Assembly: GCA_963811105.1 (NCBI GenBank)
Contig: CAWEPZ010000015.1
Span: forward strand, 1-33,697
Origin: Candidatus Bathyarchaeota archaeon
Lineage (GTDB): Archaea > Thermoproteota > Bathyarchaeia > Bathyarchaeales > Bathycorpusculaceae
DNA length: 33,697 nucleotides
Direction of reading: 5' to 3'
A model generated the notes under the pieces. The model made no database searches, was not told the DNA's origin, and worked only from the letters and a program-made list of their open reading frames with translations. This document shows positions 7,307 to 33,604 of this stretch, piece by piece (the stretch's first letter is position 1; each line of letters opens with the position of its first letter). The position numbers were made by a program, and so were the translations under genes.

Positions 7307-7369
7307 TTTTTCTTCATTTCCTCCATTTTGTATTTTGTAACTTGCCAAAGGGCAAGGTTACCAGTAAAC

Positions 7370-7879: not shown

Positions 7880-7881
7880 TT

Positions 7882-11888: not shown

Positions 11889-11919
11889 AATAATCGATCT
11901 CCACAAAATTTTAACTTAA

Positions 11920-11982
11920 CGAGTAGCGAGTTCGTCCTCTCTACCCGGTCTGTGTGACTATAAATCACGGAGAACCACTCCG
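11920..11982 (-). other. Candidate structured RNA: three adjacent hairpins upstream of decoration/capsid genes
   Basis: Minus strand CGGAG-TGGTT-CTCCG, GTGAT-TTATA-GTCAC and CGGGTAG-A-GAG-GACGAA-CTC-G-CTACTCG. Confidence 0.4.
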
Positions 11983-11983
11983 C

Positions 11984-12190
11984 TTAGCTTTCTTCAAGAA
12001 CGGCAATTTCTGCTTTCAAATTCACGATTTCTTTCTCAAGAACCTGGATTCTGCCGTACATGTTTCGAGCATGACGATTAAGCATCTCGTTATGAGGAAT
12101 TGCACGCTTCATGAAATCGTTGAGCTTATCAGCTTCAGCGTCATCAACAACGTGCAAATCGCATGGACCTTGAAGAGGATCTTGAGCCAA
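11984..12190 (-). CDS. Small coiled-coil protein of unknown function
   Basis: 68 aa in operon orientation, 2 nt after the scaffold stop. Heptad pattern IQVLEKEIVNLKAEIAVLE. Confidence 0.5.
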   Translation of the reverse strand: MAQDPLQGPCDLHVVDDAEADKLNDFMKRAIPHNEMLNRHARNMYGRIQVLEKEIVNLKAEIAVLEES

Positions 12191-12192
12191 AC

Positions 12193-12595
12193 CTAGTTCG
12201 CCTTTAATTTTTCCTTAGCCTGGAAAACTGCCGCGCGAATCACTTGGCCTTGACGCTGCATACTGGTACTAGAATGCTCAACAACTACAGGAGGCAGCAA
12301 CTTCTCGAGAACAGAAATATGCTCAGATACTGGCATTAGCACCGGGATGTTAGCCATCAAATCGGCGCCAGGCACAGCTTTCTTGAAGGCTTCAATGCAT
12401 TTGTTGGCAACGACCAGTTTGCCGTTCGACTCAGCAGTGGCAGACTCAGCAACCTTGGCTTTCCCTTCAGCAACTTTGGCGTTTTCCTCAGCTGCCAAAA
12501 GTTTCGCTTGCGTCTGGGAGATCTCTGTTTTTAGTTTTTCTATTTCAGGGGATTTCTCGCCGATTTTAGCAGCGATTTTCTCAGCAATTTCCCTA
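12193..12595 (-). CDS. Scaffolding-like coiled-coil domain, probably fused to the protease (-1 indel near 12592)
   Basis: The frame of ORF 12193..12498 extends upstream as EIAEKIAAKIGEKSPEIEKLKTEISQTQAKLLAAEEN. It is offset by one base from protease LEEKQI at ATAGGGAAATT. Confidence 0.6.
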
Positions 12596-13262
12596 TTTGT
12601 TTTTCTTCCAAAATCTCAACTCCTCTAAAACTCTCAGCGATCTTCTCAACTGGCATAATACGCGTTAACGGGATCCCGGGAAGCATTGTTTCTTTAGTTA
12701 ACCAACCTAACCCAGTAAGAACAAGACCATGACCAGGAACACCATGACTCCACTCACCCTCGATGCTGACGTTAACAATTTCTTTGCGATCAATCATCCC
12801 AACAAGAACCGACGTCTTTGGAACACGCACAAGACACTCCACACAGTCATCCTCAAACTGTGCAGCTACAACTTCCACGCCCACAAGGACCTTTGAGATG
12901 TCGTGGTTTAAGTCGCTGGGTTTACCCGTTAAGGACCGAGCAGCCTGCAAAACCTCCTCTCTTGTGAAGGGTGGACAATCCTTATTCATCGATTCAACAG
13001 GAAACAAAGCCTCAACTTGGTAGTAGAGGGCATCTTTGTCTTCTTTGACAAACTGCAAAAGAAAATTAGCCCACTCAAAACTCTGCTTAGACTTATTCGC
13101 TCGAGCAGCACCCTGAAGATAATAACTTTGAGTTTCATCCAGGGCAGAAAACTTTACCCAATCAGCATACCGAGACTCTCCCAGTTTAGGATCCTTGCTG
13201 TAATGGGACAAAAAGGCCGCATGTATCTTTTCGAAATCAGTATGTCTACAGTTACTCGACAT
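12540..13262 (-). CDS. Prohead (capsid maturation) protease with helical N-terminal domain
   Basis: SMN...FT.EEV..AARSL.GKP.DLNH (His) and IVNVSIEG (Ser) are HK97/herpes-type maturation protease motifs. First gene of the operon. Confidence 0.8.
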   Translation of the reverse strand: MSSNCRHTDFEKIHAAFLSHYSKDPKLGESRYADWVKFSALDETQSYYLQGAARANKSKQSFEWANFLLQFVKEDKDALYYQVEALFPVESMNKDCPPFTREEVLQAARSLTGKPSDLNHDISKVLVGVEVVAAQFEDDCVECLVRVPKTSVLVGMIDRKEIVNVSIEGEWSHGVPGHGLVLTGLGWLTKETMLPGIPLTRIMPVEKIAESFRGVEILEEKQIGKLLRKSLLKSARNPLK

Positions 13263-15061: not shown

Positions 15062-18000
15062 TTAGCTCTTGTTGTGGGGTAAACGCATAATGAATTTTGC
15101 GCCTTCGCCTGGCTCGCCCTCTTCAGTTATTGTCCAGCCGTAAACATCCATCATCTTCTTAATAAGAAATAAACCGAAGCCTGTGCTGCCTCCAGTACTA
15201 AAGCCTTCTTTGAATAAACTCGGTTTACTCTCCAAAGGCACGCCTACACCATCATCCTCATAAATCAACTTTAAGTAATCTTGGTCAGTCTCCTCAAAGT
15301 ACACTCTTATAGTTGTTGTTTTCTTGCCGTACTTCCTTGAATTGTCGATAAAATTGTAAAATAGTTGTCTTAGGAATGAGTCTGCCCGCACCGTTAGCCC
15401 GTGGCATTCATTAATTATCTTTGGGATAGGTCCCGAAAAAAGAGCAGCTGCTTCTTTTAGTTTCTCTTCAACATTAACATAAGTCAGCTCTTCTGATCCA
15501 ATTTGCTCGTACATTTTGGCAAAATCAAAAATCTTCATCGAATCCTTAACAGCCTGCTCCATCTTAACAAGACCCTCAACAACATCCGCCTCATCAGCAT
15601 GCTTCTTTTTGAGAAGATACGAATAACCAGTCACCGCTGAAAGCTTGTTACGAACATCATGCCTAGTTAACCCACCCACTACTCGAAGTTTTTCATTTAA
15701 TTCCTGAATCTTAGCTAAACTATACGACAAAGACTCTAAAGAAAAAGTCAAATCAGCCTCTGTACTTTTTTGCAAAGTTATGTCAGTTGTAATACTTGCA
15801 GCGCCACTAAATTCTCCATCCTCTTTGAAAATAGGTGTTCGATTCAAAATTACTGGCACAACTGAACCATCCTTATTCTTAATACACGTCTCAGTTGACC
15901 AGCTTCCACCCGCCATTAACTTTGACGAAACTTTTTCAGCTTCCTCGCCTGGAGGATTGCCCAATAGCTCATTAATCTGGTGACCCAAGGCTTGGTCTTC
16001 TTGCCACCCATAAAATTTTTCTGCTGCCTTATTCCAAAAACGAATTATTCTGTTGTTATCAACCATTATAACAGCTTGCCCAACATGATTAAGCAAATCA
16101 GCCTGAAACTTAATTGCCTCTTCCGCTTTTTTACTTTCCGTTATATCTCTAACAATTCCGGCAACTGCAATCACGTTTCCTGAATCATCTTGAACAGGAT
16201 TCAGACTGGTGCTGATATACAATTCATGGCTCAAAGCAACCATTTTTTCCTCCACAAACATACTTTTGCCGGTTTCAAAAACATTTTTAATGTTGTTTGA
16301 AAATTTAGATGCAGTTTCTTGACCATATACTTCATTTACTGACTTTCCAATAATCTCTTGAGGAGTCTTTCCCAAAACGTCTCCCAAGGTCTTATTTACA
16401 GATAAATATGTGAGGCTCTCATCTAACATGAATATTTGATCGCTAGAGTTTTCAACAATACTACGCATTTTAGCTTCCGACTGCCTTAATGCATTCCTCT
16501 CCATTTTCAATTCGCTCTCAGTTTTATTTTGCTCAGTTATGTCTTGTCCTGAACTTAGGCTTGCAACTATGTTGCCTTCTTTGTCTTTTAAAACCGAGTT
16601 GTGCCAAGCAATCAGCCTTAATTCTCCATTCTTGGTTAGAACGTGATTTTCAACATATTTGAAAAGTTCTATTTTTCCAAAGATAATATTGCTAAAACTC
16701 TTCTTAACGATTGGTCTATCTGCTTCTGGTATTACAACATCAAACCAGTTCCTGCCTAAAATTTCATCCTCTGAGTACCCTAAAACCTCCAAAGTTTTCT
16801 TGTTCGCCAAAACAGTGTTTTGATCAGGAGAAATAACCACGATCATAACATCAGCAATATCCAAGTAACTCTGATTCCTATCTTTAGCTTCAACTAAAGC
16901 TTGTTCAGCTTTCTTTTGTTCAGTTATATCGCGGACTGTAGCTTGCAGAACTTCTCGACCCTTCAGTTGTATCCTTGTTAAGAGCACGTCCGCAGGAAAA
17001 GTAGTGCCATCAATTCTCTTGTGAATCCAGAAAAAGTGATCAGTACCACTATGAAGTGCATTTTGAATGTGGCTCATTGCAGCTTTCATGGATAGTGTGC
17101 CGTCTGGTTGAGTTGAGGGCGATAAATCTGCAGGATGAAACTTGGTAAACTCTTTAACCGACTTGCAGCCAAATAATAGCAGAGTAGTTTTGTTGCATTC
17201 AAAGAAGCCTTTCTCGTCAAGCAACATTAAGGCATCCATTGAAGATTCAAAAGTGGTTTCATATTTCTCTTGAATCTCTCGAAGCTTCTCTTCAGCAGCT
17301 CTGCGTTCTGAAATATCCCGTGCAATTCCCAAAACTAGTTTCTTACCTTGTATCTTCACTGGATGGGTTCTTATTTCAACCGAAGTCTGACTGCCATTTT
17401 TACGATTTAGAACGAATTCGTCAGGACCCGATGATTTTCCAAGGGCATTCAAAGATAGAAGCTTTGCCGCTTTAAGTATTTGATTTCTTGGCAACAAATT
17501 TAGACCCAAAAAAGAACTTCCAATCAACTCAGCTCTGGAATATCCCACCATTTCTTCAGCTTTCTTATTGCCATCTACAAAATTGCCCTTTAAATCACTC
17601 AAGTAGTAAGCGTCAGGTGCATTCTCAAAAAGGAGCTTTAGGCGTTCTTCGGATAGCTTTAGTTCATCGCTCAATCTTTTGGGTTCGGTGATGTTTTCGC
17701 AAAAAGCCATCATATTTCCATCAGACAATCGTGTAGCGTTTAAAATAACATAAACGGGTTCTCCGTCTTTTCTCTTCAGAGCTGTCTCAAAACGAGATTT
17801 TCCAGTTTCTTTAAGAGTTGCAAATTGCTTAAGTCCAAGAGAGATATCTTTCTCAAACAGAATGTCCATAATGCTCATTTTGAGGAGCTCGTTTTTGGAG
17901 TAGAGTAGTAGTTTGGTTGCTGCATCGTTTACTTGGGTATATTTGCCCTCAGGATTGACGACAAAGAAAGCTATAGGAGAATTTTCAGTATAAGCCCGAT

Positions 18001-18491
18001 ATTGCTCTTCACTTTTTTTTAGAGCTTCTTCAGCTTGTTTATGATCGACTGTTTGGATTATTCCATAGCAAAGCTCTCCGTAGACGGTTTCGGGTGAACC
18101 TTGCTTGTTAAAGTATCCGTCTGCACCCAGGTTCAATGCCCTTATTGCTACTTCTTCTCTTCCTTTTCCAGTAAACAGGATGAAGGGAATTTTATTATTT
18201 CGTGTTCGCAACTCTTTTAGGAATTCTAGTCCGTCTTTTTGGGGCATCTCATAATCAGAAACTACAACATCGTAGTTGCCTGTTGTTAGTTTTTTGAAGG
18301 CTTCATCTACGCTACTGACATTATCAATATCCAAACTGCTTTCAATGTCCATTAACATGAGTTTTGTTATCTCTAGAATTGAGGGGTCATCGTCAACGTG
18401 CAAAACGCGTATAACACTCTTTTTGTTTGCAGCAGCTAAATCAGTTGCGTCTACCTCTATCGCGTTTTGGTTGAGGGTTTGTATTAGCCAT
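15062..18491 (-). CDS. Cytoplasmic hybrid sensor kinase: REC - 6xPAS - HisKA - HATPase
   Basis: REC (HVDDD, SDYEMP, FTGKG, K), six PAS/PAC repeats ending DITE/DISE, H-box RHDVRNKL, N-box NFIDNS, DDGVG and GTGFGL. ORF track start 18403 cuts REC strand 1; ATG 18491 restores it if one C near 18475 is removed. Confidence 0.92.
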
Positions 18492-18707
18492 ACGCCACAC
18501 TCAAGAGGAGACTGGATGCACTATAAGTCAGTTATGAATCCAGAATACTGAACAAACCTGTGCCGACTAGAAACAGTACACTAAGCTATTTCGCCAATAG
18601 AGACGCTATTCTTTCGGCTTTTCAGATAATTCAAAATCTTGTATCTTATTGGTTCAAATTGGCTAGAGTTTATTAGTATTGTACGCCCAAAATTGGTTCG
18701 GGCATAT

Positions 18708-18953
18708 ATGAAGAGAGAAGAAGCTGTGGCCGTCTATAAGGAAATTATGAGTTTAGCTGAGTTCATGGGGTCAAACGCCTTTAATCTAAAGTTGTCGAAG
18801 ATAGATGACCCAACCTCAGAAGGCTATCAAATATGTATAACAATGGTCTTAGATACCGAAATCAGACAGCAGATAGCAAAAATTGCTAAGAAACATCATT
18901 TAGCTGTAAAAGAGGAGAAAGGCGAAGTAATAATTTTTAAGCCCAAAGCTTAG
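18708..18953 (+). CDS. Small conserved hypothetical protein, same family as 26670..26921
   Basis: Probable start MKREEAVAVYKEI. EGY...I..IAKKHHL...VII pattern shared with 26670..26921. Confidence 0.65.
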   Translation: MKREEAVAVYKEIMSLAEFMGSNAFNLKLSKIDDPTSEGYQICITMVLDTEIRQQIAKIAKKHHLAVKEEKGEVIIFKPKA

Positions 18954-18980
18954 CTTCGCTCTTCTTATTTAGAGTCCAGT

Positions 18981-21900
18981 TTATCGTTTATTTCTTTGGG
19001 GTAAACGTATTATGAAAGTTGTTCCTTTGCCCTCTTGACTCTCAAAAGACACTGTGCCGCCTAAAGCGTCAGTCATGCGCTTGATCACTGATAAGCCAAA
19101 TCCTTGACCTTTCGCTTTAGTTGTAAACATTGGCGTAAACAGTTTGCCCTTTACATGGTCCGGAATGCCGTCGCCTGTATCATTAACAGTTATGACAACA
19201 TCGTTTGATTGTTTGTATGCATTTATTGTTAGTTTACCTCCTTTGGGCATGGCTTGAACTGCATTAGTAACCAAATTGTACAGGATGCGATTTAAGAAAG
19301 TTGAATCAGCCACAACTTTCCTAACATCAGATTCCACTTTGACGATTACTTTAACGTTCTTAGGCAAACTATACTTTCTTAGTAGCTCATCGATTATTAG
19401 TTTTAGGTCGGTTTCTTCTGCATTTGGTTTAAGCGTTCTTGCATAGTCTTGCAGATCGGCAACAATCTTGCTAATGTAATCAACGTTCTCTTCTATTCCA
19501 TCCAAACTTTCTTTAACGTTTTTTTTGTCGTCACTTTCAGGCATTGAAACTATTTCTGACTGCAACAAATAGACATCACTAGTTATTGCTTGCAGAGGAT
19601 TACGAATATCATGACCAACCATGCCAGCAGTAGCGCCTATGGCCGCGAGACGTAGAGTTGCTTCAAGTTTTTTTCTATCATCAATATCGATAAAAGACAA
19701 GACAGCCCCATCTAACCTGTCATCTTGAGTTATGTAAGGTCTAATTTTCATATCAAAATAATGGCCTTGTGCATCCTTCACTTCTTTGGTGATAACGCTT
19801 AGTTTTGATGCGACTTCTGAAATTAATTCGCCTAAGTCTTCAACTATTACGTTCAATTTGATAGTTGTTATTGGCAGGCCAACAGTTGATGGTGAAAGAT
19901 TCAGAATTTTCTGTGCTGAAGGCGAAAATAACCTAATCTTTAAACCCTTATCGATAATAACTATAGCTGGTTCCACGTTTCTATTCAAATTGGTCAAGTC
20001 ATCATTCAACTGGGCAAGGGTTTGATTTCGGTTCTTTACCTCATCATTCAAAGTCTTTAATTCTTCATTGGTAGATTGAAGTTCTTCCTTAGCCGTTTCC
20101 AATTCCTCATTTGTACTCTGCAACTCCTCATTACTCGACTGTGCCTCCTCTATAGTGGTTCTCAATTCTTCATTTGTTGCCTCTTGGGTTTCAACAATTC
20201 TCTGCAAAGTCTGTTTAGTTGAATCCAGCTCTTCCCTGAGATCTTTATTTTGGCGGTCCTTAACGTTTTCCCGGCCTTCAGCAGTGGTATTTAACTCCAT
20301 TGTTTTGCGTAAGAGCGCTGCAGCTGAGCTGACATCTTCAAATAATAACAGGAAAAATGGCGCCACAAACTGTTCAACATGCAACGGAACAACCTGAATG
20401 TTGATTGTTTTCTGATCTCCAGCATATTCAAACCGAACAGCAGTTTCTTTGACAAGTCTATCCTCTTTTCTTGCTCTATAGATTATCGTCTGCACTTCAG
20501 ACCTTAACTCTTTGCGAACAATCTTTGCCAGATTCAAACTCGCCAAACCCGATTCAGGCAAAACATATGGTGCAACATTTCCACGAAAAACCAGAACATC
20601 CAAATCAGAATTAACCAGCAAAGCTGCAGGGACATACTCAGTGACTAGTAAATGGTCAACCTCCTCTTTGAGCACTGAAAGAACATCTGTCTTCTCGCCT
20701 TCTTTGCCCTCTTTACGCTTTAAATAAGGCGCTGATGCTTGCAGACCAAAAGTAACCTTAGCCGGAGCTCTCTTTTTCACATAGATAGGGCCCCTCTTGT
20801 TTACAGGTTCAAATAACTGGGTGAATTTTCCAATGCTTTCAGATTGTCCAAGGACAAGAAAACCACCCATTTTCAATGCGTAATGCAGAGTAGGCACTAC
20901 TCTTTCGTGGAGGACCTCATCAAAGTAGATGAGCATGTTGCGGCAACTGATAAGATCCATATTCGAAAAAGGCGGATCAGCCGTTATATCCTGCTTTGCA
21001 AAAACGCACTTATCTCGAATGGGTTTGGAGATTTGATAGTTGCCATTAGAGCTTTTGAAGAAATGTTTTAGTCGTTTTTCGTTGACGTCGGTTTCTATTG
21101 TTAATGGGTAGATTCCTTTTCTTGCTTTTTCAATGTTTTTTTCGTTTACATCTGTTCCGAAAATTTGAACTTCAAGATCACTTGCGGAGTTTTCTTCGAG
21201 ATATTCCTGAATTGCAATTGCGAACGAATATGCTTCTTCTCCAGTTGAGCAGGCTGGAATCCAAACTCGAATTGGCTCTTTGGGCTGGCGATTTTTGACT
21301 AAACTTGGAAACACTGTTTCTTTGAGTGCAACAAATGTTTCAGGTTCCCTAAAGAAACTCGTTACTCCTATTAGCATATCGTTGAATAATGCTTCCAACT
21401 CGTTTGGATGCGTCCGCAAGAACTTTGTGTAATTATCCATTTTTTCTATGTGGTTAATTACCATTCGGCGTGTGACACGTCGGTTTACAACCGTTTCTTT
21501 GTAGTGTGAAAAATCAATGTTGCAGTTGGATTTTAGCATGGTAAATATTGCGTTTAAGCCTTTTTCCTTCGTTAGTTTTTCTTCCTTTAGTCCGGTTTCA
21601 TCTCTTGTTGCGATTTCCTTTCGTGCTAGGTGAGGATTCTTAGCGATTTTTTGTAACTCTAGTGCAATCTTGTCTGGGGAAAGAACAAAATCCGTTGCTT
21701 CTGCTGAAATTGCGCTTTGGGGCATGTCTCCATATTGGGCTGAATCGGGAGTTTGTGCGAAAGTTATTCCTCCTTGCGCTTTGATTGCTTTTAGTCCTTC
21801 AGTTCCATCAGAGCCTGTGCCTGAAAGCACAATTCCTATGCTTTGACTCTTCAAGTCCTCAGCTAGAGAAACAAAAAAGGTATCAATAGGTTTCAGAGAC

Positions 21901-22202
21901 TTACCCTTCGGGGTAAGTTTGAGAACCTTCTTTTCAATGGTCATTGTTTCTCCGGGTGGAATAACGTAAACATTATCCGGTTCAACGGGCAGTCCATCTT
22001 TGACTACTTGAACAGGAATTTTGGTAAATCTTGAAAGAATTTCGGTCAGCATGCTTTCTTGACCAATGGCCAGATGCTGAATAATAACAAAAGATAAACC
22101 CGTATGGACTGGTAAATATTCGAAGAAAACCTTGAAGGCTTCTAAGCCGCCCGCTGAAGCGCCAATTCCTACCGTAATCAATGATTGTTCAACTTTGGAC
22201 AT
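18981..22202 (-). CDS. cheBR: CheB methylesterase - CheR methyltransferase - coiled coil - PAS - histidine kinase fusion
   Basis: CheB (GIGASAGG, IIQH, LSGTGSDG). CheR (IGVTSFFRE, WIPACSTGEEAYS, GTDVNE, DLISCRNMLIYF). NEELQS heptads, H-box GHDIRNPL, NAVQA, DTGDG and GQGFGL. Confidence 0.95.
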   Translation of the reverse strand: MSKVEQSLITVGIGASAGGLEAFKVFFEYLPVHTGLSFVIIQHLAIGQESMLTEILSRFTKIPVQVVKDGLPVEPDNVYVIPPGETMTIEKKVLKLTPKGKSLKPIDTFFVSLAEDLKSQSIGIVLSGTGSDGTEGLKAIKAQGGITFAQTPDSAQYGDMPQSAISAEATDFVLSPDKIALELQKIAKNPHLARKEIATRDETGLKEEKLTKEKGLNAIFTMLKSNCNIDFSHYKETVVNRRVTRRMVINHIEKMDNYTKFLRTHPNELEALFNDMLIGVTSFFREPETFVALKETVFPSLVKNRQPKEPIRVWIPACSTGEEAYSFAIAIQEYLEENSASDLEVQIFGTDVNEKNIEKARKGIYPLTIETDVNEKRLKHFFKSSNGNYQISKPIRDKCVFAKQDITADPPFSNMDLISCRNMLIYFDEVLHERVVPTLHYALKMGGFLVLGQSESIGKFTQLFEPVNKRGPIYVKKRAPAKVTFGLQASAPYLKRKEGKEGEKTDVLSVLKEEVDHLLVTEYVPAALLVNSDLDVLVFRGNVAPYVLPESGLASLNLAKIVRKELRSEVQTIIYRARKEDRLVKETAVRFEYAGDQKTINIQVVPLHVEQFVAPFFLLLFEDVSSAAALLRKTMELNTTAEGRENVKDRQNKDLREELDSTKQTLQRIVETQEATNEELRTTIEEAQSSNEELQSTNEELETAKEELQSTNEELKTLNDEVKNRNQTLAQLNDDLTNLNRNVEPAIVIIDKGLKIRLFSPSAQKILNLSPSTVGLPITTIKLNVIVEDLGELISEVASKLSVITKEVKDAQGHYFDMKIRPYITQDDRLDGAVLSFIDIDDRKKLEATLRLAAIGATAGMVGHDIRNPLQAITSDVYLLQSEIVSMPESDDKKNVKESLDGIEENVDYISKIVADLQDYARTLKPNAEETDLKLIIDELLRKYSLPKNVKVIVKVESDVRKVVADSTFLNRILYNLVTNAVQAMPKGGKLTINAYKQSNDVVITVNDTGDGIPDHVKGKLFTPMFTTKAKGQGFGLSVIKRMTDALGGTVSFESQEGKGTTFIIRLPQRNKR
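19102..19141. repeat. 40-bp identical block shared by the two adjacent kinase HATPase domains
   Basis: Identical to 22670..22709, within about 650 bp of high similarity (about 18990-19640 vs 22560-23200). Confidence 0.85.
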
Positions 22203-22551
22203 TTAGTAAGCACCTTCTTACAGATTTTGTTTTCGCTTTATCTTTTATTTTTGACAAAACTTACTCTCCCAAGAGTTTGTTTTGTTTTGCCAGGTTAAAG
22301 TAATAATTAATACTTATTATTTGAATAGCAAGTAACTAGTATTAATAGTGCGCGTACTTGGCTTAGATAAAAATGTCAAATGACTCCGTATGATTCAATC
22401 ATTTAACTCAAAATCAATCAATGTTTAGAAAATCGGCTCAACCAGTGTATTATTCGATCTCCTTTTCAGTTTCACCCCAAGGTTAAAGGTACGTTCAAAT
22501 TACGTATCTTGATTTTTCATCCTCCTCATTACTTTTAGGTTCATTTACCGT

Positions 22552-25500
22552 TTATTTCTTAGAAAGAGGTAAACACACCCTGAAAGTCGTTCCTTTGCCT
22601 ACTTCACTTTCAAAAGACACTGTGCCGCCTAACGCTTCAGTCATACGCTTAATCACAGCTAAGCCAAAACCTTGACCTTTCGCTTTAGTTGTAAACATTG
22701 GCGTAAACAACTTGCCTTTTACATCTTCAGGAATACCAACGCCTGTATCCTTAACAGATATGACAGTATCATTTGCTTCTTTGTACGTGCGAATGGTTAG
22801 TTTGCCGCCCTTTGGCATGGCTTGAACAGCATTATTCACCAAATTGTACATTATGCGATTTAAGAAAGTGGAGTCAACTACAACTTTTCCAGCTTCCACC
22901 TTAACACTTACTTTAACATTCTCTGGCAAACCGTTCTTTGACAGCAAGTCATCAATTATACGTTTCAAATCAGTTTCTTCAACATTTGGCTTAAGAGGCC
23001 TTGCAAAATCTTGCAGGTCCTGAACGATTTTGTTAATATAATCAATGTTCTTTTCAATCTCTGTTAGGCTTTCTTGGATGTTCTTTTTCTCTTCCCCTTC
23101 AGGAATTGAATCCAACTCTGTTTTAGCCAAATAAACATCCCCAGTAATAGCCTGGAGCGGGTTACGAATATCATGCCCAACCATACCAGCAGTAGCACCA
23201 ATAGCAGCTAAACGTTCAGCATCCTTCAACTGCGCAGCTCTCTGATTAGCAAGCTCCTCCATTTGAGTAGCATATTCTTCAAGACGAACTGCAGACTCTT
23301 CGAGCTTTAGTTGCATATGAATTCGTTCAGTAATGTCAACATTTGACTCCAACACTTCCACTATTTTGCCATCAGATCCCAATTTCCCCAACCAATAACT
23401 TTGCACAACCAACCTACTTCCATCTTTGCAAATATGGATAATTTCCCCAGACCACTTCCCTTTTGTTTTGAGGTCATTTTGAATCTCCTTCAGCGATTGT
23501 GGCAATTGGGTCTTCAACAACACGTTAACATCTTGCCCTATGGCTTCATCTTTTGTCCAACCATATAGTCTCTCAGCACCTTTACTCCAAAAAGTAATTG
23601 TACCATCAAGCTTCCTAACAATTATTGCATCGGGACTGAGATCAATAAGCTCAGCCTGCCTTGCAGTAGCAACCTCAGCTTTCTTGCGTTCGGTAATATC
23701 AACGAATGCTCCAAGGCAACCACGCACGTTTCCAGCGTCATCAAATAGTGGTTTAGCGTTTCCAATAATCGTAATCTTTCTACCACTAGGAACTACCACT
23801 TCCAACTCAGAATTCTTAATTTCAACGTTCTTTGCCGCTGCCTCCTGCATAGGAAGCTCTTGAGGTATCAACTCTTTTCCATTCCGGAAAAACCGCCTGG
23901 TAGTATCTTGTGCACTTCCACTTGCCGGTCCCGCAGAAACGTTCTCCTCACCCTCTGCTTCATAGAAGGTGTTCGCCGCCTGATTACCGACTATTACTTT
24001 GCATTCTGGGTCCTGGGATACCCAAACAGCGGCAGGAATAATATCCATAAGTTTTCGTAGTTCTTCTGCACGCTGACGAGCGTGTTCCTCACTTTTTTTG
24101 AGTTCTTCTTCAGCTTTCTTGCGCTCAGTGATAATTTGCGTTGTAATCGCAATGCCGTCAGAGATTGGAGTGATGGTAACAAGGAACCAGTCGTCCACTC
24201 TATCCGCTTGGTAGTGGTCTTCAAATTCAATTACATGCCTGGTTTTGAATGCCCGCTTGTACATCGAAAAGAAGTGAGTTTGAGGAAAGGTAGGATAGAC
24301 CTCGGTCATGCGCAGGCCAACTAACTCTTCCGGCTTGCGTCCTGTTAACTTGGCAGCCCTGGCATTTTGGTAGACGAACGTGAAGTCAACCACTTCCCCC
24401 TGATCATTGAAAAACGGTTTGAGAATTGTGAAGCGGTCAAGGGAATTCTCCTGCACAGTCCGGAAGCGTTCTTCTGCTTGTCTTAGTGCTTCTTCGGCTT
24501 TCTTGCGTTCAGTAATGTCTCGGAATATTAGAACAACACCTGTGGTTTTGCCTTCCTTATCTTTTATTGGTGCTCCACTGTCGTCAATTGCAACTTCAGT
24601 CTTGTTCTTCCGAATCAATAACGTATGGTTTGCTAATCCAACAATCAAGCCTTCCGCCAAGACTTTGCTTACAGGATCTTCAACTTCAACTCGGGTCTGT
24701 TCATTAACGATGTTGAAAATATCCTTCACCGGCTTAAGTGAAGCATCACTAAATGTCCAACCCGTCAGTTCTTCAGCCTCGCGATTCATAAATGTGATTT
24801 TACCTGATGTATCTGTGGCTATGACAGCGTCGCCGATGCTTGACAGTGTAGTTACCCAACGCTGCTCACTCTCTTGTAAAGCGGTCTCAGCATTTTTCAT
24901 ATCTGTCAAGTCAACGGTTGCACTTGAAACACCAATTATTTGACCTTTAGAATCACGAAGTGGCGACCAAATTATGTCTAAAAAGATTGAACCAGACGGC
25001 CTATTAAACCACTTTTGCTCACGTAATTCAATGCCTTCTTTCATAACCCTACGCTTGAGGGCTCCTACATATGCAGCTTCTTCGGCGGTGAAAATTTCAC
25101 TGTCCAACTTGCCTATAATTTGCTCAGGTCGAGCCGTCTTTTGATTGTACGCCCAAGTATACCTAAGCTCCAAGTCTTGTGCTGCCACTGATACAGGTGC
25201 GTTTTTAAGTGCAATACGGAACCGCTCTTCACTTTCCATCAATGCCTCTTCATCTTTTTTGCGCTCTGTGATATCGTGCATTGTCTGAATTGCGCCAACT
25301 ATCTCGCCTTTTTCATCTCTTAGAGGTGCGTAACTGTTGCTTGTAAACCAGCGCTTGCCTAAATCGGTTCGTTCAACGATAAATTCTTCATTATTGCCGG
25401 ATTTTCCTTGAAGTGCTTTAGTCGCTGGCCACTCTTCAACAGGCACATAAGTCCCATCAAGCCTGTAAGCCTTAAAAATGGTTCCAAGTGAGCTAATGCT

Positions 25501-26559
25501 TCTCAAAGTTTCCTCCCTGTTCTTAAACTGATTAATGCGACAAAACGCGTCATTGAAGTCAATGACTTTGCCTGTTTTGTCCATAACAAAAACTCCCTCA
25601 TACATGCTGTTGAAGACACTTTCAAGCAAAAGTTTACTTGACAATACTTCTTCTTCGGCTTTCTTCCGGTCGGTAATGTCCTGCCACATTCCAACGAGAC
25701 GTTTTTTTCCATTCACAGTAATAGTTTGGGTAAAGTAGGTTGTATCTATCTTCTTTCCATTTGGAAGAAAGTAAGTTTGTTCATCCTCAACTTCTTTTCC
25801 TTCGTTGAGCAGCTTTAATGTCCGTTCTCGTTTGTTTCTATCGCCATATTCAAGAAAATCAGACATAAAGTGCCCTATTAATTTTTGACGCTCTACACCA
25901 AACAATAGCTCAAATTTAGTATTAACTTCAATTAATTCACCGTCTAATTCCGATATTGCCATCGCTTGTTGATTGCCAAAGAAGGCCTTTGAAAAGCGTT
26001 CCTCACTTTCCTTTAGCGTTTCTTCAGCTTTCTTTTTCTCAGTAATGTCGGTGCCTAAAACTGTAATTCCTTCAGCCGAAGGAAACACTGTCATCCGATA
26101 CCACTCTTTGGTATATTTGCCGCCTATTTCAAAGCGCCTTATTTCTCTTGTTTCCATTGTGGCACGAAAGTTCTCTTCAAGAATAGTGCCTAAATGTTTT
26201 GGAAACATCTTCCAAATATTTTGTCCCACAAAATCTTTAGGCTCCTTTCCTATTCTGCCCGTGAATCGTTTGCTCGCAAAAACAAAATTCCAGTTACGGT
26301 CAAGCACATAAAAGTCATCTTGGATGCTGTCTAAAATCTCAGTAATAGTTTGGTAACTAAGTTCACTTTGCTTGCCTTTCGCAATCGTTTGCTCATTATC
26401 ATTTTCTTTGTTTGTAGGCAAAGAAACACCGCAAGTCCCAAAAGGTTTTACTTTACTTTTCACAGGTAAGAAATAAAAGCATTCCCTAACTAGGAGTTTC
26501 ACGCTAACGAATTGTTTCATTGATAAGTCGTAAATCACTCTTTTTCTGAATTGTTCCAT
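22552..26559 (-). CDS. Cytoplasmic multi-PAS (8x) sensor histidine kinase
   Basis: Eight PAS/PAC repeats, H-box GHDIRNPL, NAVQA, DTGVG and GQGFGL; no TM helix. True start possibly TTG 26421. Confidence 0.93.
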   Translation of the reverse strand: MEQFRKRVIYDLSMKQFVSVKLLVRECFYFLPVKSKVKPFGTCGVSLPTNKENDNEQTIAKGKQSELSYQTITEILDSIQDDFYVLDRNWNFVFASKRFTGRIGKEPKDFVGQNIWKMFPKHLGTILEENFRATMETREIRRFEIGGKYTKEWYRMTVFPSAEGITVLGTDITEKKKAEETLKESEERFSKAFFGNQQAMAISELDGELIEVNTKFELLFGVERQKLIGHFMSDFLEYGDRNKRERTLKLLNEGKEVEDEQTYFLPNGKKIDTTYFTQTITVNGKKRLVGMWQDITDRKKAEEEVLSSKLLLESVFNSMYEGVFVMDKTGKVIDFNDAFCRINQFKNREETLRSISSLGTIFKAYRLDGTYVPVEEWPATKALQGKSGNNEEFIVERTDLGKRWFTSNSYAPLRDEKGEIVGAIQTMHDITERKKDEEALMESEERFRIALKNAPVSVAAQDLELRYTWAYNQKTARPEQIIGKLDSEIFTAEEAAYVGALKRRVMKEGIELREQKWFNRPSGSIFLDIIWSPLRDSKGQIIGVSSATVDLTDMKNAETALQESEQRWVTTLSSIGDAVIATDTSGKITFMNREAEELTGWTFSDASLKPVKDIFNIVNEQTRVEVEDPVSKVLAEGLIVGLANHTLLIRKNKTEVAIDDSGAPIKDKEGKTTGVVLIFRDITERKKAEEALRQAEERFRTVQENSLDRFTILKPFFNDQGEVVDFTFVYQNARAAKLTGRKPEELVGLRMTEVYPTFPQTHFFSMYKRAFKTRHVIEFEDHYQADRVDDWFLVTITPISDGIAITTQIITERKKAEEELKKSEEHARQRAEELRKLMDIIPAAVWVSQDPECKVIVGNQAANTFYEAEGEENVSAGPASGSAQDTTRRFFRNGKELIPQELPMQEAAAKNVEIKNSELEVVVPSGRKITIIGNAKPLFDDAGNVRGCLGAFVDITERKKAEVATARQAELIDLSPDAIIVRKLDGTITFWSKGAERLYGWTKDEAIGQDVNVLLKTQLPQSLKEIQNDLKTKGKWSGEIIHICKDGSRLVVQSYWLGKLGSDGKIVEVLESNVDITERIHMQLKLEESAVRLEEYATQMEELANQRAAQLKDAERLAAIGATAGMVGHDIRNPLQAITGDVYLAKTELDSIPEGEEKKNIQESLTEIEKNIDYINKIVQDLQDFARPLKPNVEETDLKRIIDDLLSKNGLPENVKVSVKVEAGKVVVDSTFLNRIMYNLVNNAVQAMPKGGKLTIRTYKEANDTVISVKDTGVGIPEDVKGKLFTPMFTTKAKGQGFGLAVIKRMTEALGGTVSFESEVGKGTTFRVCLPLSKK

Positions 26560-27286: not shown

Positions 27287-27568
27287 TTATTCAACCGGGA
27301 ACAAGGTCTCAAATTTGTTGTAGAAAGTGTCTTTGTCTTCTTTGACAAACTGCAAAAGAAAATTAGCCCACTCAAAACTCTGCTTAGACTTATTCGCCCG
27401 AGCAGCACCCTGAAAATAATAACTGTGGGTTTCATCCAGGCCAGAAAACTTTACCCAATCAGCATACCTAGACTCGCCAAGCTTAGAATCTTTGCTATAG
27501 TGTGCCAAAAAAGCTGAGTGAATCTTCTTGAAATCAGCGTGCCGTCTGCCTTCATAAGACATGCTCAA
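27287..27568 (-). pseudogene. Truncated second copy of the prohead protease gene (N-terminal domain only)
   Basis: Highly similar to residues 1-90 of 12540..13262. Stops at LFPVE*, before the catalytic His and Ser. Confidence 0.85.
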
Positions 27569-29320: not shown

Positions 29321-29605
29321 CTAAATAGCCTCCCCAAACTTTGAAGGCTTAATATTACAACAAACGGATACGGGGTATTTTGTGGTCTCCTCACAATCAA
29401 TGTTCGCTTCAACCTTAGGAAAAGCCAGATCCACACTCGCGACGTCTACGTCATCAGCTAACTTTTCCCAATGAAGCCTACAACAAGGAACCTTCTCAGC
29501 AGTCAAAAACACCGCAGGATCTGACTTGCAATCTTTGCACACACGTAACTCAGCCAAAGCCTCAGCATCCAAAACCCAATGATACTTAGAAATCTTCTTT
29601 CTCAT
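29321..29605 (-). CDS. Small Cys-rich (Zn-finger) protein
   Basis: Probable start MRKKISKYHW overlapping the upstream gene; CKDC...CCRLH. Confidence 0.55.
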   Translation of the reverse strand: MRKKISKYHWVLDAEALAELRVCKDCKSDPAVFLTAEKVPCCRLHWEKLADDVDVASVDLAFPKVEANIDCEETTKYPVSVCCNIKPSKFGEAI

Positions 29606-30263
29606 GCCCCAAAACCTCTTCAGATCCAGCGGAAGAAACCTCACTCTCTGGCTCAATTGGCTCATCGTAGGAATCAAAAGCAAACCTAGTCAAGGCCCAT
29701 GCATGACCGCGTTTCTCAAAGAGGCATTTGCCCGTTTCTTTATGTAGGCGCTTGTTCATGCGCAAAATCCGCCGACTCACATCATAATACCTTAACCCAA
29801 ACTTTCCACGCAAATTGACATCAGCAGCAACAACCTTTGGCAAAACACCAGGAACTCCAGCTTCCCGAATCCGCTGCACAATCTCCCGATCAACCTCATC
29901 AACCAACGCAAAATGCTCAACATCCAACCTTGAATAATCCGCTTCACCAATCCGATCTATCTTATTGCGAAACCAACGCAACTCCATCTTAAGATCCTCA
30001 ATACCCGCTAACGCCTGCTTAATTAACTGCTGATTATACCTGTTTATGCCAGCCTTATCGCTTGGGTCACGCTTCTTTTTAGATTTTGCAACCACTTTTT
30101 TTGTAGTTTCAACAGCATTTTCACCTAAAACCTGTTTTTCCTGTTCAAACAAGACATCCCACTCCATCAACGTTACCGAAAAAATAGTGCCCGTAATCAG
30201 GGCTACCCACCATAAGAAACCACCATCTTGAAAGCATGGACTTTTCCCATGGATTTTGAGCAC
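29586..30263 (-). CDS. Coiled-coil plus C-terminal winged-helix DNA-binding protein
   Basis: DEVDREIVQRI...GVLPK.VA...VSRRILRMNKRL...LFEKRGHAWALT wHTH pattern. True start probably TTG 30152. Confidence 0.6.
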   Translation of the reverse strand: MLKIHGKSPCFQDGGFLWWVALITGTIFSVTLMEWDVLFEQEKQVLGENAVETTKKVVAKSKKKRDPSDKAGINRYNQQLIKQALAGIEDLKMELRWFRNKIDRIGEADYSRLDVEHFALVDEVDREIVQRIREAGVPGVLPKVVAADVNLRGKFGLRYYDVSRRILRMNKRLHKETGKCLFEKRGHAWALTRFAFDSYDEPIEPESEVSSAGSEEVLGHEKEDF

Positions 30264-30348
30264 GCTTTTGTTTGCTTTTTTGCATCAAACAAGCTTTCAC
30301 ATCCAAAATTACCCATAGGCGATCGGGCAAAACAAAATTAAGAGACAT
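30145..30348 (-). CDS. Hypothetical protein
   Basis: 67 aa bridging the flanking genes, with short overlaps at both ends. Confidence 0.35.
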   Translation of the reverse strand: MSLNFVLPDRLWVILDVKACLMQKSKQKRAQNPWEKSMLSRWWFLMVGSPDYGHYFFGNVDGVGCLV

Positions 30349-31387
30349 ATTTGGCGCCTCCTAGAGCGTTCCCTTTTGGAGCTTGAGAGTTACCGTCTAG
30401 ATTGAAAACCTGATGCAAGACGTCAGTTAACCTGCCCAAGTTTACAGTGAGCATGTTGACGTCGCTCCGTAGTGCAGAGACTTCGTTTTCAATGTACTTG
30501 GTTTTATCCAGGTCACTGACTTTGTTTTTGTACATGCCCTCGATTAGCCGTTCTAAGCCCATCAGCCGAGAGTTTGTAAATTTCAAAGCCTCAGAATTAC
30601 CCTTGACTTCCTGCTTTAACTCAAAATTCGCCTGAGCGTTAGAATGCTCATTAAAGCCCTTAGATATGGCTTCCTCAAACTTGTTAACACTCATCGGAGT
30701 TACGGTTTTTTGTTCTTTGCGAACTAGATTCTCCTCTTTTTGGTAAACTCGCTCGATCATACCGTAAAGATCCGTTCTAGTCACACATTGGACTCCATCG
30801 ATGCGTAAGCCGTGATAGTCTTTGTTGAGCTCAAAAGTTAGGATTTGCAGGTCATTTAACTGGAACGCCAAATGATCCTGTACAATGTCAAACCAACGAT
30901 TCAAAGCCAGAAGGCAAGCATCATGCGACATGCCACCGACGTCACAAGCGATGTAACCACTAACCTTGCGCCTCTCCTGCCCAAAACAAACATGAATCTT
31001 AACGCCCCCAATGAATTCGTCTTTTTCCCAAGACTTAACATCCTGGCAAACAAAACTTCGCAGGCTAATGTTGTGCACTGCCAACGGAACAAACCGCACC
31101 CCGTAGGTGATTTTGTTACAGTATGCTCCAAGATACGGCTGCAGAATCAAGCCCTTATCGAGAAGTTTTCTGATGGCACACCTAACTGTAGTGTATTGAC
31201 CGCGTGTTGGCTTCTTGGGAGCATGGAGTTTACGTGCAATCTCGGCAGGTCTAAGCTCAATTTCTGAAGCATCGATAATATGAAAGACTCTGTTCTCTAT
31301 GCTCCAATTCTTCGTCGACACGCAACTGTTGCAACTGGTGTTGCTAGAGGTGTTTGTGACCTTATCAGATGAAACAGTCAAAAACAA
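30338..31387 (-). CDS. wHTH plus putative Rep_trans-like replication initiator plus coiled coil
   Basis: N-terminal wHTH (LRPAEIARKL...VRCAIRKLLDKGLI). Central FELNKD, ERVYQK and VRKE resemble the D-x3-D, Y-x-K and R-x-E motifs of pT181/Rep_trans initiators. C-terminal heptads. Confidence 0.45.
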   Translation of the reverse strand: MFLTVSSDKVTNTSSNTSCNSCVSTKNWSIENRVFHIIDASEIELRPAEIARKLHAPKKPTRGQYTTVRCAIRKLLDKGLILQPYLGAYCNKITYGVRFVPLAVHNISLRSFVCQDVKSWEKDEFIGGVKIHVCFGQERRKVSGYIACDVGGMSHDACLLALNRWFDIVQDHLAFQLNDLQILTFELNKDYHGLRIDGVQCVTRTDLYGMIERVYQKEENLVRKEQKTVTPMSVNKFEEAISKGFNEHSNAQANFELKQEVKGNSEALKFTNSRLMGLERLIEGMYKNKVSDLDKTKYIENEVSALRSDVNMLTVNLGRLTDVLHQVFNLDGNSQAPKGNALGGAKYVS

Positions 31388-31395: not shown

Positions 31396-31647
31396 CTAAG
31401 TTCCTACTCTACTTTTCAATTTTCCCAATCGAAAAGTGCACCTAACAAAAACCATAGGGTCCTTAAAACATGAGGCTGGACAAAATGTCCCATCGGAACA
31501 GTAACGGCCTTCACAAACAGGATCAATTTTGTCGCCGACAAACTCACAGAAGACAGCAGCCGGCGCCCGATCCGCAACCTCAACAACCTTTGCACTCTGA
31601 ACTGAAACAGTACCTTTAGGCTGCCAAAACGGCTTCCACTCAGTCAC
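31396..31647 (-). CDS. Small Cys-rich protein
   Basis: 83 aa with six Cys; overlaps the upstream stop; GGAGGGG SD. Confidence 0.55.
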   Translation of the reverse strand: MTEWKPFWQPKGTVSVQSAKVVEVADRAPAAVFCEFVGDKIDPVCEGRYCSDGTFCPASCFKDPMVFVRCTFRLGKLKSRVGT

Positions 31648-31967
31648 AAAAGCCCCTCCTTAACCAAAACCTCAGAAACAAAATCATTCGGGAAACTTTG
31701 CTTGATCTCCTGCAAAACAGCGACGTCTTCACTCAAAAACTCAAGGTAAGGCACAAACTTGTTACTGTGAAACCTAAAGAAAATCGACTTCTGGCCCGGC
31801 TGCCGATTAATGCAGTTAAAACGTGTTTTGCTGTTCCAGGTGATCGAGCATCCAAACTTTATGCTAACCTGATTCACCAGATCATAAGCAAGTTTAGACT
31901 TTAAGCGAGCAGACTCCAGGGACCCGTATTTGGGAGGCACAAAACCCTGTTCAGCCAAAGCCATCAC
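31644..31967 (-). CDS. Hypothetical protein
   Basis: 107 aa, overlapping both neighbours in operon orientation. Confidence 0.55.
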   Translation of the reverse strand: MMALAEQGFVPPKYGSLESARLKSKLAYDLVNQVSIKFGCSITWNSKTRFNCINRQPGQKSIFFRFHSNKFVPYLEFLSEDVAVLQEIKQSFPNDFVSEVLVKEGLL

Positions 31968-32188
31968 TCCAATACTCCAGCTACAGCGAAAAGCTGCTTT
32001 TGCCCCGGCTCTAAAGGTTTTTCAACCCTAACAGGCTTAGGCAAACCCTTCAAAAGAAACCGAGCAACGACGTCAGAGTCGCCACGGTCAAAACGCATCT
32101 TCAAACAACGGTTTTTTTCATGATCTTGTCGATAAGCGCTGGGAATTGGTTTGCCGCAAATCCTACATTTACTATGACCTACTGGCAT
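31964..32188 (-). CDS. Small Zn-finger protein (CxxC...H...C)
   Basis: CRICGKPI...DHEKNRC; abuts the PolX stop. Confidence 0.6.
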   Translation of the reverse strand: MPVGHSKCRICGKPIPSAYRQDHEKNRCLKMRFDRGDSDVVARFLLKGLPKPVRVEKPLEPGQKQLFAVAGVLE

Positions 32189-32758
32189 TTACCAAGGAAC
32201 CTCCCTATCTTTTGGCTCAACATACGCCAGCCCAAGAGCAGCAAAGATATCCTCTTCAGAACGGCTAGCGATAACTTCAGCTCGAGGCTTATGATCACTA
32301 TCAACCCAATGCCTTTGAACACCTTGAGAAGCACTAAGCATCAAACCCTTCGAACGCGCCAACGTGCAAAGCTTCACATTATGCTCCTTACTGCCAGTGC
32401 GTACGAGCAGGATCACGCCCCACGTCTCCGGACGCGCCCGGTAAACATCCACTTGAAAGCCATTATCTGAGAAAAAGCAGCGCAACAACTCCTGGCCAGA
32501 AGCCTCAACTTTCAAACCTAACTTGACTAGAACTTTAGGAAGTAAATTCTTCCAAACAGTTGAAGGATCCACTTTAACAATACCAATACCAAACAAGCCG
32601 CTAGGCAGATCCACAATCCTAGGCGCCGCTACAATATCGATATCGCCAACTTCCGCCTTTCCCCGGCGAATAGATCCAGCAACTTCGACACGCCAACAAT
32701 AAGGCTCCAAGACCTTACAGACCGATAATGCCAAAACCTGAGCTTCATCTAATTTCAT
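32189..32758 (-). CDS. polX: Minimal X-family DNA polymerase (palm plus thumb only)
   Basis: VAGSIRRGKAEVGDIDIV, FQVDVY, RTGSKEHN and SEEDIFAALGLAYVEPKDRE. Lacks the 8-kDa lyase, fingers and PHP domains. Probable start ATG 32758 after AGGAGG. Confidence 0.88.
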   Translation of the reverse strand: MKLDEAQVLALSVCKVLEPYCWRVEVAGSIRRGKAEVGDIDIVAAPRIVDLPSGLFGIGIVKVDPSTVWKNLLPKVLVKLGLKVEASGQELLRCFFSDNGFQVDVYRARPETWGVILLVRTGSKEHNVKLCTLARSKGLMLSASQGVQRHWVDSDHKPRAEVIASRSEEDIFAALGLAYVEPKDREVPW

Positions 32759-32954
32759 CAAGAAGCCTCCTTTCGCGTATCTTTCCAAACTGTGAACGTG
32801 CAACCGCAACTTTGGCACTCAAAAGCTTCAATATCGGGACTAACCCACAAACCCCAAGAATAAGCGTCTTTTTATGGTTCGCCCAGCTGCCGCAGGAAGG
32901 GCAGAAAAACTCAATCTTAGATGCCATAGTCGGGCTCCTCAAAATCCTCATCAT
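32745..32954 (-). CDS. Small Zn-ribbon protein
   Basis: MASKIEFFCPSCG...H...C; the start is probably the internal ATG after GAGGAG. Confidence 0.5.
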   Translation of the reverse strand: MMRILRSPTMASKIEFFCPSCGSWANHKKTLILGVCGLVPILKLLSAKVAVARSQFGKIRERRLLDEIR

Positions 32955-33207
32955 CGACTAAGTCCCAGCCGGGATTGCATTCATCGCAAGTGCTGGAACC
33001 ACAATCGCAACCCATTTCAAAACAGCTTCCATAAGCCCATTCACCCTTGAATTCCTCAGCCCCTTCCTGCTCAAGTAGTAGCCAGAAGGCTGCGAAAGTC
33101 TTTGACTCAAACGGATTGCGAACCCAAACTGTATTGAGATAAACAGAAATATTGAGCTCAGGAAACTTTATCGGGACATCGTCAAAGACGTTTTTTTGCC
33201 CTTTCAT
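32917..33207 (-). CDS. Hypothetical protein with acidic, Cys-rich C-terminus
   Basis: Probable start MKGQKN after AAGGAGG; CFEMGCDCGSSTCDEC. Confidence 0.55.
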   Translation of the reverse strand: MKGQKNVFDDVPIKFPELNISVYLNTVWVRNPFESKTFAAFWLLLEQEGAEEFKGEWAYGSCFEMGCDCGSSTCDECNPGWDLVDDEDFEEPDYGI

Positions 33208-33386
33208 TAAGACAGCCTCCTTACAAAACTGCAGTCTTTGCACTTCTTTCGCCCAGTGTTACGCTTACCTTCATGAGTTACATTTCGAGAACAAACTTTA
33301 GCAATGCAAACTGGGCGCGGCAGTGCATTATAGGTCTTGAAGGACTCAACACTGTAATTCTGGGACCTAGTTGAGTTCCAAGTCAT
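33207..33386 (-). CDS. 59-aa Zn-finger-like protein (below ORF-track cutoff)
   Basis: MTWNSTRSQNYSVESFKTYNALPRPVCIAKVCSRNVTHEGKRNTGRKKCKDCSFVRRLS*. ATGA and TAATG overlaps with both neighbours. Confidence 0.6.
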   Translation of the reverse strand: MTWNSTRSQNYSVESFKTYNALPRPVCIAKVCSRNVTHEGKRNTGRKKCKDCSFVRRLS

Positions 33387-33604
33387 TTCCGTTTTCTCCC
33401 GGTTGTAATTCGCTTACCAAGAAGGCACAAAATACCCTTGAGGCAGCCAACCTCACAATCACAAGAAACCGCAAAACCCGTAATCCAGCCAAGATAACGA
33501 CCCTGAGCTGATCCCGGAACAACACGCAAAGAAAGCACAACAAGCCTACTGCGCTTCAAACTGCACCAGTTTTCTACATCCTCAAAAACAGGCTCATCGC
33601 TCAA
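33383..33604 (-). CDS. Small Cys-containing hypothetical protein
   Basis: 73 aa with TTG start after AGGAGG; preceded by an oligo-T tract (about 33628-33642). Confidence 0.55.
   Translation of the reverse strand: MSDEPVFEDVENWCSLKRSRLVVLSLRVVPGSAQGRYLGWITGFAVSCDCEVGCLKGILCLLGKRITTGRKRK

Follow-up and report, generated by a model that had tools for sequence, protein, structure and literature searches.

In the phage P2 gpA replicon, a temperate tailed virus combines a rolling-circle initiator, an origin located inside the initiator gene and packaging by terminase. Two families of TBP-fold initiators, Rep_trans and Rep-Arvir, are named in the available part of PMC13595969. The Rep_trans family (PF02486) includes pT181 RepC, RepD/RepDE (4CWC), RepSTK1 (4CIJ) and inovirus Reps. 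For RepD, the accessible text of Carr et al. gives the residues R140, D142, A144, D146, T176, Y178, G180, R189, Y191, K193, R212 and E214, with D46, D142 and E214 as metal ligands (PMC4797284); these positions were checked on pT181 RepC and six other Rep_trans proteins. Rep-Arvir is described, in the sections available of PMC13107129, as an initiator that is common to viruses, plasmids and ICEs and moves between these element types; the viruses named there are pleomorphic and lemon-shaped, with no tailed ones among them. For many archaeal viruses, the same sections note, a replication protein has yet to be recognized (PMC13107129).

The window analyzed here is one whole 33.7-kb contig (C15) of a 3.49-Mb Bathyarchaeia genome, and the contig end falls inside a provirus (Table 1). 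An earlier note on this DNA had proposed that one of its genes, termed REP here, encodes a Rep_trans-like rolling-circle initiator linked to a tailed-virus structural module; the names REP, X2 and X3 are labels coined in this analysis. A literature search, with most subscription papers outside its coverage, found neither a description of the REP family nor TBP-fold initiators in tailed viruses.

Table 1. Coordinates of the features discussed, in positions of the window
Feature	Position	Strand	Remarks
REP, candidate TBP-fold tyrosine transesterase/replication initiator	30338..31387	(-)	349 aa ORF
REP winged-helix domain, residues 30-90	31118..31300	(-)	predicted structure and Pfam HTH_IclR matches
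REP TBP-like catalytic domain, residues 96-247	30647..31102	(-)	H105, E186, D190, T203, R213, Y215, K217, R223, E225
REP long helix (coiled coil), residues 245-328	30404..30655	(-)	predicted; followed by a conserved C-terminal Y-V-S/R/T end
23-nt nested palindrome, candidate origin or REP binding site	31322..31344	(-)	inside the 5' end of REP; 114/116 loci
Second conserved inverted repeat	30234..30251	(-)	upstream of o29586, in REP, X2 and X3 loci; 62/189 fetched loci at <=2 mismatches
Downstream gene o29586	29586..30263	(-)	no family match; follows REP, X2 or X3; 25/90 REP loci, most X2 loci
Early/middle genes upstream of REP, including short PolX	31396..33604	(-)	synteny with other copies in the genome
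Truncated second copy of the first head gene	27287..27568	(-)	87% identical to 12992-13240
Interruption of the provirus by three host-type PAS/CheBR sensor kinases	15062..26559	(-)	absent from the virus in relatives
Putative protease/scaffold, cement protein, HK97 major capsid protein (MCP)	10490..13262	(-)	
Putative portal, split over two frames here	8899..10183	(-)	assigned from its position and size
Neck, tail tube, tape measure and LamG tail genes	422..8616	(-)	contig ends at position 1

The REP protein and its candidate DNA sites

The REP ORF is real and conserved. A protein search returned 209 relatives, and a profile search returned 339 representatives, of which 150 were listed. The alignment contains 98 sequences, made up of REP itself, 10 close relatives and those 87 listed representatives chosen because they cover the middle domain; identities range from 18 to 81%. 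The genome itself holds four intact copies and one frameshifted copy of REP in decayed elements, and dN/dS is 0.01-0.09 in all six pairs among the intact copies. Close homologues carry the label Bathyarchaeota. In a sample of the phylum, full matches to the catalytic domain occur in 8 of 401 genomes, a patchy host range; the search matched 325 of the genomes, almost all via the winged helix, and only matches covering the catalytic domain were counted. No REP relative was found among INPHARED phages or PLSDB plasmids, the ESM Atlas gave no match for REP or X2, and IMG/VR yielded no context for three distant homologues. A distant REP-like gene (L187:14890-16239 on G277:C1; E 6e-11) occurs in an integrase-bearing element of another family in the phylum, and this element has no recognized capsid gene.

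The earlier note had described a winged helix followed by the motifs FELNKD, ERVYQK and VRKE (residues 185-190, 212-217 and 222-225) and then a coiled coil. This architecture is borne out by the full-length structure model (mean pLDDT 86.8) and by Pfam HTH_IclR, which 32 of the 98 homologues match; the N-terminus preceding the winged helix is disordered in the model. Scans of Pfam, PHROGs and NCBIfam gave no match to the catalytic domain, and a PDB sequence search matched the winged helix and coiled coil only. The PHROG phrog_31115, 'replication initiation protein', is matched by 12 of the 98 members (best E 6e-5), and was not counted as an identification because the matched region is probably the winged helix.

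Folded alone, the REP domain is modeled with a pTM of 0.85. Among 48,161 chains, RepDE (4cwc) ranks sixth (Z 7.3, rmsd 4.4, 136 of 158 residues aligned) and RepSTK1 (4cij) ranks tenth (Z 6.6, rmsd 4.2, 136 residues aligned), where Z values below 8 can reflect a common fold arrangement. TBPs (Z 8.0-8.4) and the N-domain of archaeal SerRS (Z 8.1-8.2) outscore the Reps in the same comparison. TBP is also the best Foldseek match of the middle domain (E 4e-5), and the BFVD viral models matched include TBPs and inovirus Reps such as A0A345MNV4 (E 9e-4). According to the available portions of the two reports, A0A345MNV4 is the hit through which Rep-Arvir was recognized (PMC13107129), and RepDE itself compares with TBP at only Z 5.4 (PMC4797284). 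No Rep-Arvir member was recognizable among the fold hits, in a solved-structure set that may contain none and a BFVD set in which many entries are nameless. In these models the REP fold is TBP/Rep_trans-like, and the fold by itself does not tell a Rep from a TBP-like factor.

The residue pattern adds to this picture. On a map drawn from motif order and the start of the structural range, REP is colinear with RepD: E186 corresponds to D142, D190 to D146, T203 to T176, R213 to R189, Y215 to Y191, K217 to K193, R223 to R212 and E225 to E214, and the structurally aligned ranges start in register at H105 and D46. Y215, R223 and E225 are invariant in all 98 homologues across the whole range of identities. 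D190 is kept in 96/98, R/K213 in 96/98, T203 in 93/98 and K217 in 92/98, and the remaining counterparts of the metal triad by motif order or aligned range are E186 in 85/98 and H105 in 78/98 (otherwise Gln in 19 and Glu in 1). The E, D, Y, K, R and E residues whose invariance the earlier note proposed to check are thus conserved at 85/98 to 98/98. Its assignment of metal ligands to D-x3-D and R-x-E, with the Tyr in Y-x-K, stands as regards conservation and has to be amended as regards the ligands, which in RepD are the three residues given above, the first of them appearing as His/Gln in REP. The RepD motif R140-x-D142-x-A144-x-D146 is not kept: REP has T-x-E-x-N-x-D, with T184 for R140, so that the last Asp is retained (96/98) and the Arg and Ala are not. 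R140, A144 and Y178 have no like counterpart in REP. Overall, REP is likely a tyrosine transesterase of the Rep_trans superfamily.

Membership in a named family is a separate matter. PF02486 is matched neither by REP nor within the best 25 families for the 98 homologues, and it is absent from the genome at E<=1, with positive controls matching; PF25227 (DUF7845) matches neither REP, nor the homologues, nor the genome, with a control matching in Haloferax. Because neither family profile matches, REP is set apart from both Rep_trans and Rep-Arvir. In a profile-profile comparison with seven Rep_trans sequences, REP reaches no significant score (equalled in 21 of 60 column shuffles), and hhalign pairs only the R-x-Y-x-K stretch with Rep_trans, including RepC. 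As for HUH enzymes, there is no conserved H-x-H in the 98 homologues and the predicted fold is TBP-like, not RRM-like. The earlier label, Rep_trans-like, therefore holds for the fold, by the RepDE and RepSTK1 matches, and not for PF02486 membership. The conserved motifs suggest that REP probably works like Rep_trans proteins while being a member of neither named family.

The 23-nt element inside the 5' end of REP is composed of nested AAC/GTT palindromes. With <=1 mismatch, it is present at 114 of 116 distinct loci having enough upstream DNA (129 before duplicate removal) and in 0 of 2320 shuffled controls, the pattern having been drawn from the same loci on which it was counted. A self-complementary central dinucleotide is present in 98 of the 114, and two outliers (L183 and L186) have CAC/GTG in place of AAC/GTT in every arm. 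The element sits in another reading frame at 17 loci, and Asn codons within it are AAC almost without exception; the REP N-terminus, modeled at low confidence, is conserved because the underlying DNA is conserved. Exact matches in the genome number six, five of them inside REP genes. As single-stranded DNA, the element folds no better than shuffles (z -0.22), with no significant nick-site hairpin, and so reads as a double-stranded binding site. It is a candidate origin or a candidate autoregulatory operator; the pT181 origin hairpin likewise lies within the 5' coding part of repC. The second inverted repeat has a 7-nt centre, which is found in either orientation depending on the locus, and the folding of this repeat is no better than that of shuffles (z -0.74).

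The provirus, its relatives and the REP slot

The REP copy of the window lies in an interrupted, contig-truncated provirus. An HK97 MCP (phrog_267, E 1e-14) and tail genes, as in Caudoviricetes, are present, and the head genes show 89% nucleotide identity to those of a related contig (G649:C115). The protease/scaffold is named by position and has no family match. Pfam, PHROG and NCBIfam gave no match to the putative portal (400-430 aa, encoded behind the MCP); other REP viruses have Pfam portals. The putative portal is a single ORF in relatives, so that a programmed frameshift was rejected; the single-base frame breaks in this gene and in the cement gene (11447-11906), both intact in relatives, are either real or an assembly error. 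In agreement with the earlier note, no primase, MCM or PolB was matched among the 30 window ORFs scanned.

The sensor-kinase island (14-kb) is bracketed by a 123-nt inverted repeat (13708-13830 and 26811-26933) and lies between the first head gene and its truncated second copy. Also encoded within the provirus (27946-29109) is a 387-aa membrane-anchored protein that lacks a Pfam match and belongs to a host family present in multiple copies. The short PolX (32189-32818) consists of palm and thumb only and is a recurring viral gene near the REP slot. Related proviruses, representing at least three head types, have left many decayed remnants across the genome (C1, C2, C3, C4, C6, C7, C8, C10, C11, C12 and C15), and the start of one REP element (C4) and of one X2 element (C2) adjoins a tRNA gene. 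REP and the head module of the window may be remnants of two related proviruses, and for this reason the REP-head link is shown for the family and not for the window's copy.

In total, 139 REP loci were fetched, and ORFs were clustered in the 90 of 5 kb or more. Several head types accompany REP, the window's MCP family being found within 10 kb in 3 of the 90 (L010, L053 and L104). G001, a 38.5-kb element rated complete, contains REP, the window's MCP family, terminase, tail genes and an integrase, and a scan of its 42 ORFs gave no helicase, primase, PolB or other initiator match. The co-occurrence with this MCP family that the earlier note called for is thus seen in G001 and in G647, and is not seen in 29 IMG/VR loci of the MCP, where REP occurs in none and X2 in 10. 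REP belongs to integrated tailed viruses of Bathyarchaeia, the hosts being uncultured archaea of soil and peat.

These viruses carry terminases. None was matched among the 30 window ORFs scanned because the contig ends, and since no assembly contig overlaps the window's start, the terminase of this copy is unplaced. G649:C115 agrees with the window in its MCP (95% identity) and in the order of its tail genes, and also matches window positions 1-76; its terminase lies ~3.3 kb beyond the point matching window position 1. A second relative (G647:C10) carries REP (88%), o29586, head, tail and terminase, all encoded on the same strand; the first head gene is ~2.7 kb away from o29586. Among 10 genomic loci of the window's MCP family, a terminase lies downstream within 20 kb in seven and none lies in that span in three. 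A terminase-type gene is present in 28 of 52 partly redundant REP loci with >=8 kb downstream, 24 of these genes belonging to clusters with a Pfam terminase representative and four to a cluster named by position without a Pfam match. PF03237 was matched in four of five virus records searched, and the fifth was matched by ORF scan. In relatives, the terminase gene either follows the tail genes or precedes the head genes, and terminase homologues are found elsewhere in the genome (C7, C6, C3, C11, C2, C10 and C12). The HK97 capsid and tail lacking terminase, as the earlier note had it, is accordingly not upheld by syntenic relatives, and motor-independent packaging is refuted for the family. This virus group shows an unusual gene order in L026, L039/L049, G649:C115 and G647:C10: protease-scaffold, cement, MCP, putative portal and tail, with terminase and an ABC-ATPase/GNAT gene last, at the far end; the putative portal in this order matches no family.

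The REP slot may also hold other proteins. At three loci of the genome, ALTERNATIVES is in the REP slot, with X2 located between the same neighbours (G000:C2:412514-413356, C10:9254-10075 and C11:1496284-1497126); X2 has 295 relatives. X3 (L039:5286-6152), like X2 an unannotated winged-helix protein, occupies the slot in L039 and is also present in L028, and L075 has REP together with an inverted X3. X2 is the commoner partner of the window's MCP (10/29 IMG/VR loci and 5/10 genomic loci, none of them with REP). REP and X2 never occur in one locus: the REP domain is found in 0 of 47 X2 loci (47 of 49 re-examined), and that of X2 in 0 of 144 REP loci. Both X2 and X3 have a winged-helix-like start and the C-terminal Y-V-S/R/T end of REP, and the 5' DNA of each gene contains repeats or palindromes of its own. 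By eye, D-x-S/T stands at the place of the REP Y-x-K, and neither protein has a catalytic Tyr. Since hhalign of REP with X2 gives nothing significant outside the winged helix, kinship of the catalytic domains is by eye only. The occurrence of Tyr-less proteins in the same slot suggests that the job of the slot may not need a covalent intermediate.

A VirB4-like ATPase, with no head or terminase cluster, is present in 11 of the 90 REP loci (L091, L092, L094, L151, L152, L154, L155, L158, L165, L167 and L178), some of which add ArdA, prepilin peptidase, TBP or methylases. A VirD4-like protein occurs in two, of which L152 looks partly bacterial; all VirB4-like and VirD4-like matches are below curated NCBIfam cut-offs, and the elements are incomplete. 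Ca. Bathycorpusculum is named in three records, and the literature search on this host genus and 'conjugative' found no paper. All 10 full-length REPs at VirB4-linked loci retain the catalytic motifs, and no other relaxase was matched among those VirB4-locus ORFs that were scanned. In a FastTree tree built from 257 columns of 77 sequences, with a distant homologue as root, nine VirB4-linked REPs and two unlabelled loci form one clade (support 1.0), nested among virus-linked REPs (support 0.92-0.97). These capsid-less elements are candidate archaeal ICEs, and the REP of this clade probably serves the conjugative element as its relaxase.

Proposed role of REP and competing explanations

REP is, with reasonable probability, the rolling-circle replication initiator of these temperate Bathyarchaeia tailed viruses, combined with ordinary terminase packaging; P2 provides the model for such a scheme. 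Once the provirus is excised, the winged helix of REP would bind the palindromes within the 5' end of the REP gene, and Y215 would nick a single strand, with H105, E186 and E225 as the ligands of a metal. The 3' end would be extended by a host helicase and polymerase. REP would then close the displaced strand, which the host would convert to double-stranded DNA for packaging by the terminase-portal motor, as in P2.

Lambda O offers the comparison for a different role, in which REP, X2 and X3 would each bind a theta-replication origin, at repeats within the respective gene, and engage the host helicase through their shared C-terminal tail, with nicking being secondary or vestigial. The repeats or palindromes in the 5' ends of all three genes, their similar C-terminal ends, the mutual exclusion of REP and X2, and the lack of the Tyr in X2 and X3 would all be accommodated. 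However, the invariance of Y215, R223 and E225 down to 18% identity is the pattern of an active site, and the motifs are all retained in the full-length REPs of the VirB4 clade (10/10), which makes this role rather unlikely. REP might instead be a non-replicative site-specific nuclease or nickase (a resolvase, a packaging helper or a selfish mobile nuclease) moving between elements, consistent with its occurrence alongside at least four types of head/terminase, next to conjugative genes and in small integrase-linked islands, and with its patchy hosts; yet the slot is fixed, G001 has no match to another initiator, and Rep-Arvir shifts between element types alike while being an initiator, so that we regard a non-replicative enzyme as unlikely. 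A viral TBP-like transcription factor, acting as a late activator and autoregulating through the 5' palindromes, is improbable: TBPs are the best structural matches, REP directly precedes late genes in many loci, and a TBP gene adjoins or closely follows REP in eight loci, mostly VirB4-linked, but the invariant acidic residues and the sheet Tyr fit Rep chemistry rather than TATA binding, and PF00352 is absent from the top families of the 98 members. The reading of the earlier note, in which rolling-circle single-stranded DNA is packaged by a terminase-less HK97 capsid and tail, can hardly be maintained given the terminases of G649:C115, G647:C10, 7/10 genomic MCP loci and 5/5 virus records (four by PF03237, one by ORF scan).

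Returning to REP as a rolling-circle initiator, a common Bathyarchaeia provirus group now has a named candidate for the initiator, with the catalytic residues, and one for the origin, which makes the question testable in vitro without host culture. A broader proposal, which we put forward tentatively and hold to be somewhat doubtful as a whole, is that REP represents a third TBP-fold rolling-circle initiator family, replicating archaeal HK97 tailed viruses from an intragenic origin and taken over as a relaxase by a conjugative element, with X2 and X3 as sister initiators having an Asp-x-Ser/Thr site. As an initiator, REP would extend the TBP-fold class to tailed viruses, and its VirB4-linked clade would exemplify a viral initiator that became a relaxase.

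Comparison with known systems

By their description in the available text, Fuxivirus and Kunpengvirus share the host class, HK97 MCP, portal, terminase and tail with the REP viruses; Kunpengvirus has MCM and PolB, and for Fuxivirus no initiator is named (bioRxiv 2023.08.24.554615). A rolling-circle initiator is not named in the accessible parts of this report, PMC11705971 or PMC13573593, the gene tables of which may hold homologues as hypothetical proteins.

MOB_T relaxases (RelSt3, NicK and Orf20), as presented in the sections available of PMC6499999, resemble REP in having an N-terminal HTH and a Rep_trans-type domain. They match PF02486 and are Firmicute proteins, whereas REP does not match PF02486, is archaeal and, in the window, is viral. 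MOB_T relaxases are encoded by ICEs with VirB4 and a coupling protein (PMC6499999); a VirB4-like protein accompanies REP in 11/90 loci, the window not among them, and a VirD4-like protein in two.

Rep-Arvir/RepSNJ2 (DUF7845, PF25227), as far as the available text describes it, is likewise an archaeal TBP-fold initiator with a winged helix and the same inovirus structural hit (PMC13107129). Its N-terminal catalytic domain is followed by a MarR-like winged helix, whereas this order is reversed in REP (PMC13107129), in which the catalytic domain is half the size and the Y-x-K motif is kept. The candidate DNA element is inside the gene for REP and downstream of it for Rep-Arvir, in the part of the description available. 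The words 'Bathy', 'tailed' and 'Caudoviricetes' are absent from the accessible text of one Rep-Arvir supplement.

Rep_trans proteins share with REP the TBP-like curved sheet, the colinear E/D-x3-D, T, R-x-Y-x-K and R-x-E residues, and a conserved DNA element lying within the 5' portion of the coding sequence. Their domain is ~195 aa compared with ~150 aa in REP, and the gap from the Tyr to R-x-E is 21 compared with eight residues. Unlike Rep_trans, REP has no HMM or profile match, His/Gln for D46 and no R140, and combines an N-terminal winged helix and a C-terminal coiled coil in archaeal tailed viruses. The pGS5/pTP2 Reps are a possible lead for comparison. The overall scheme proposed for REP is that of P2, with the difference that P2 gpA is an HUH enzyme whereas REP is predicted to have the TBP fold.
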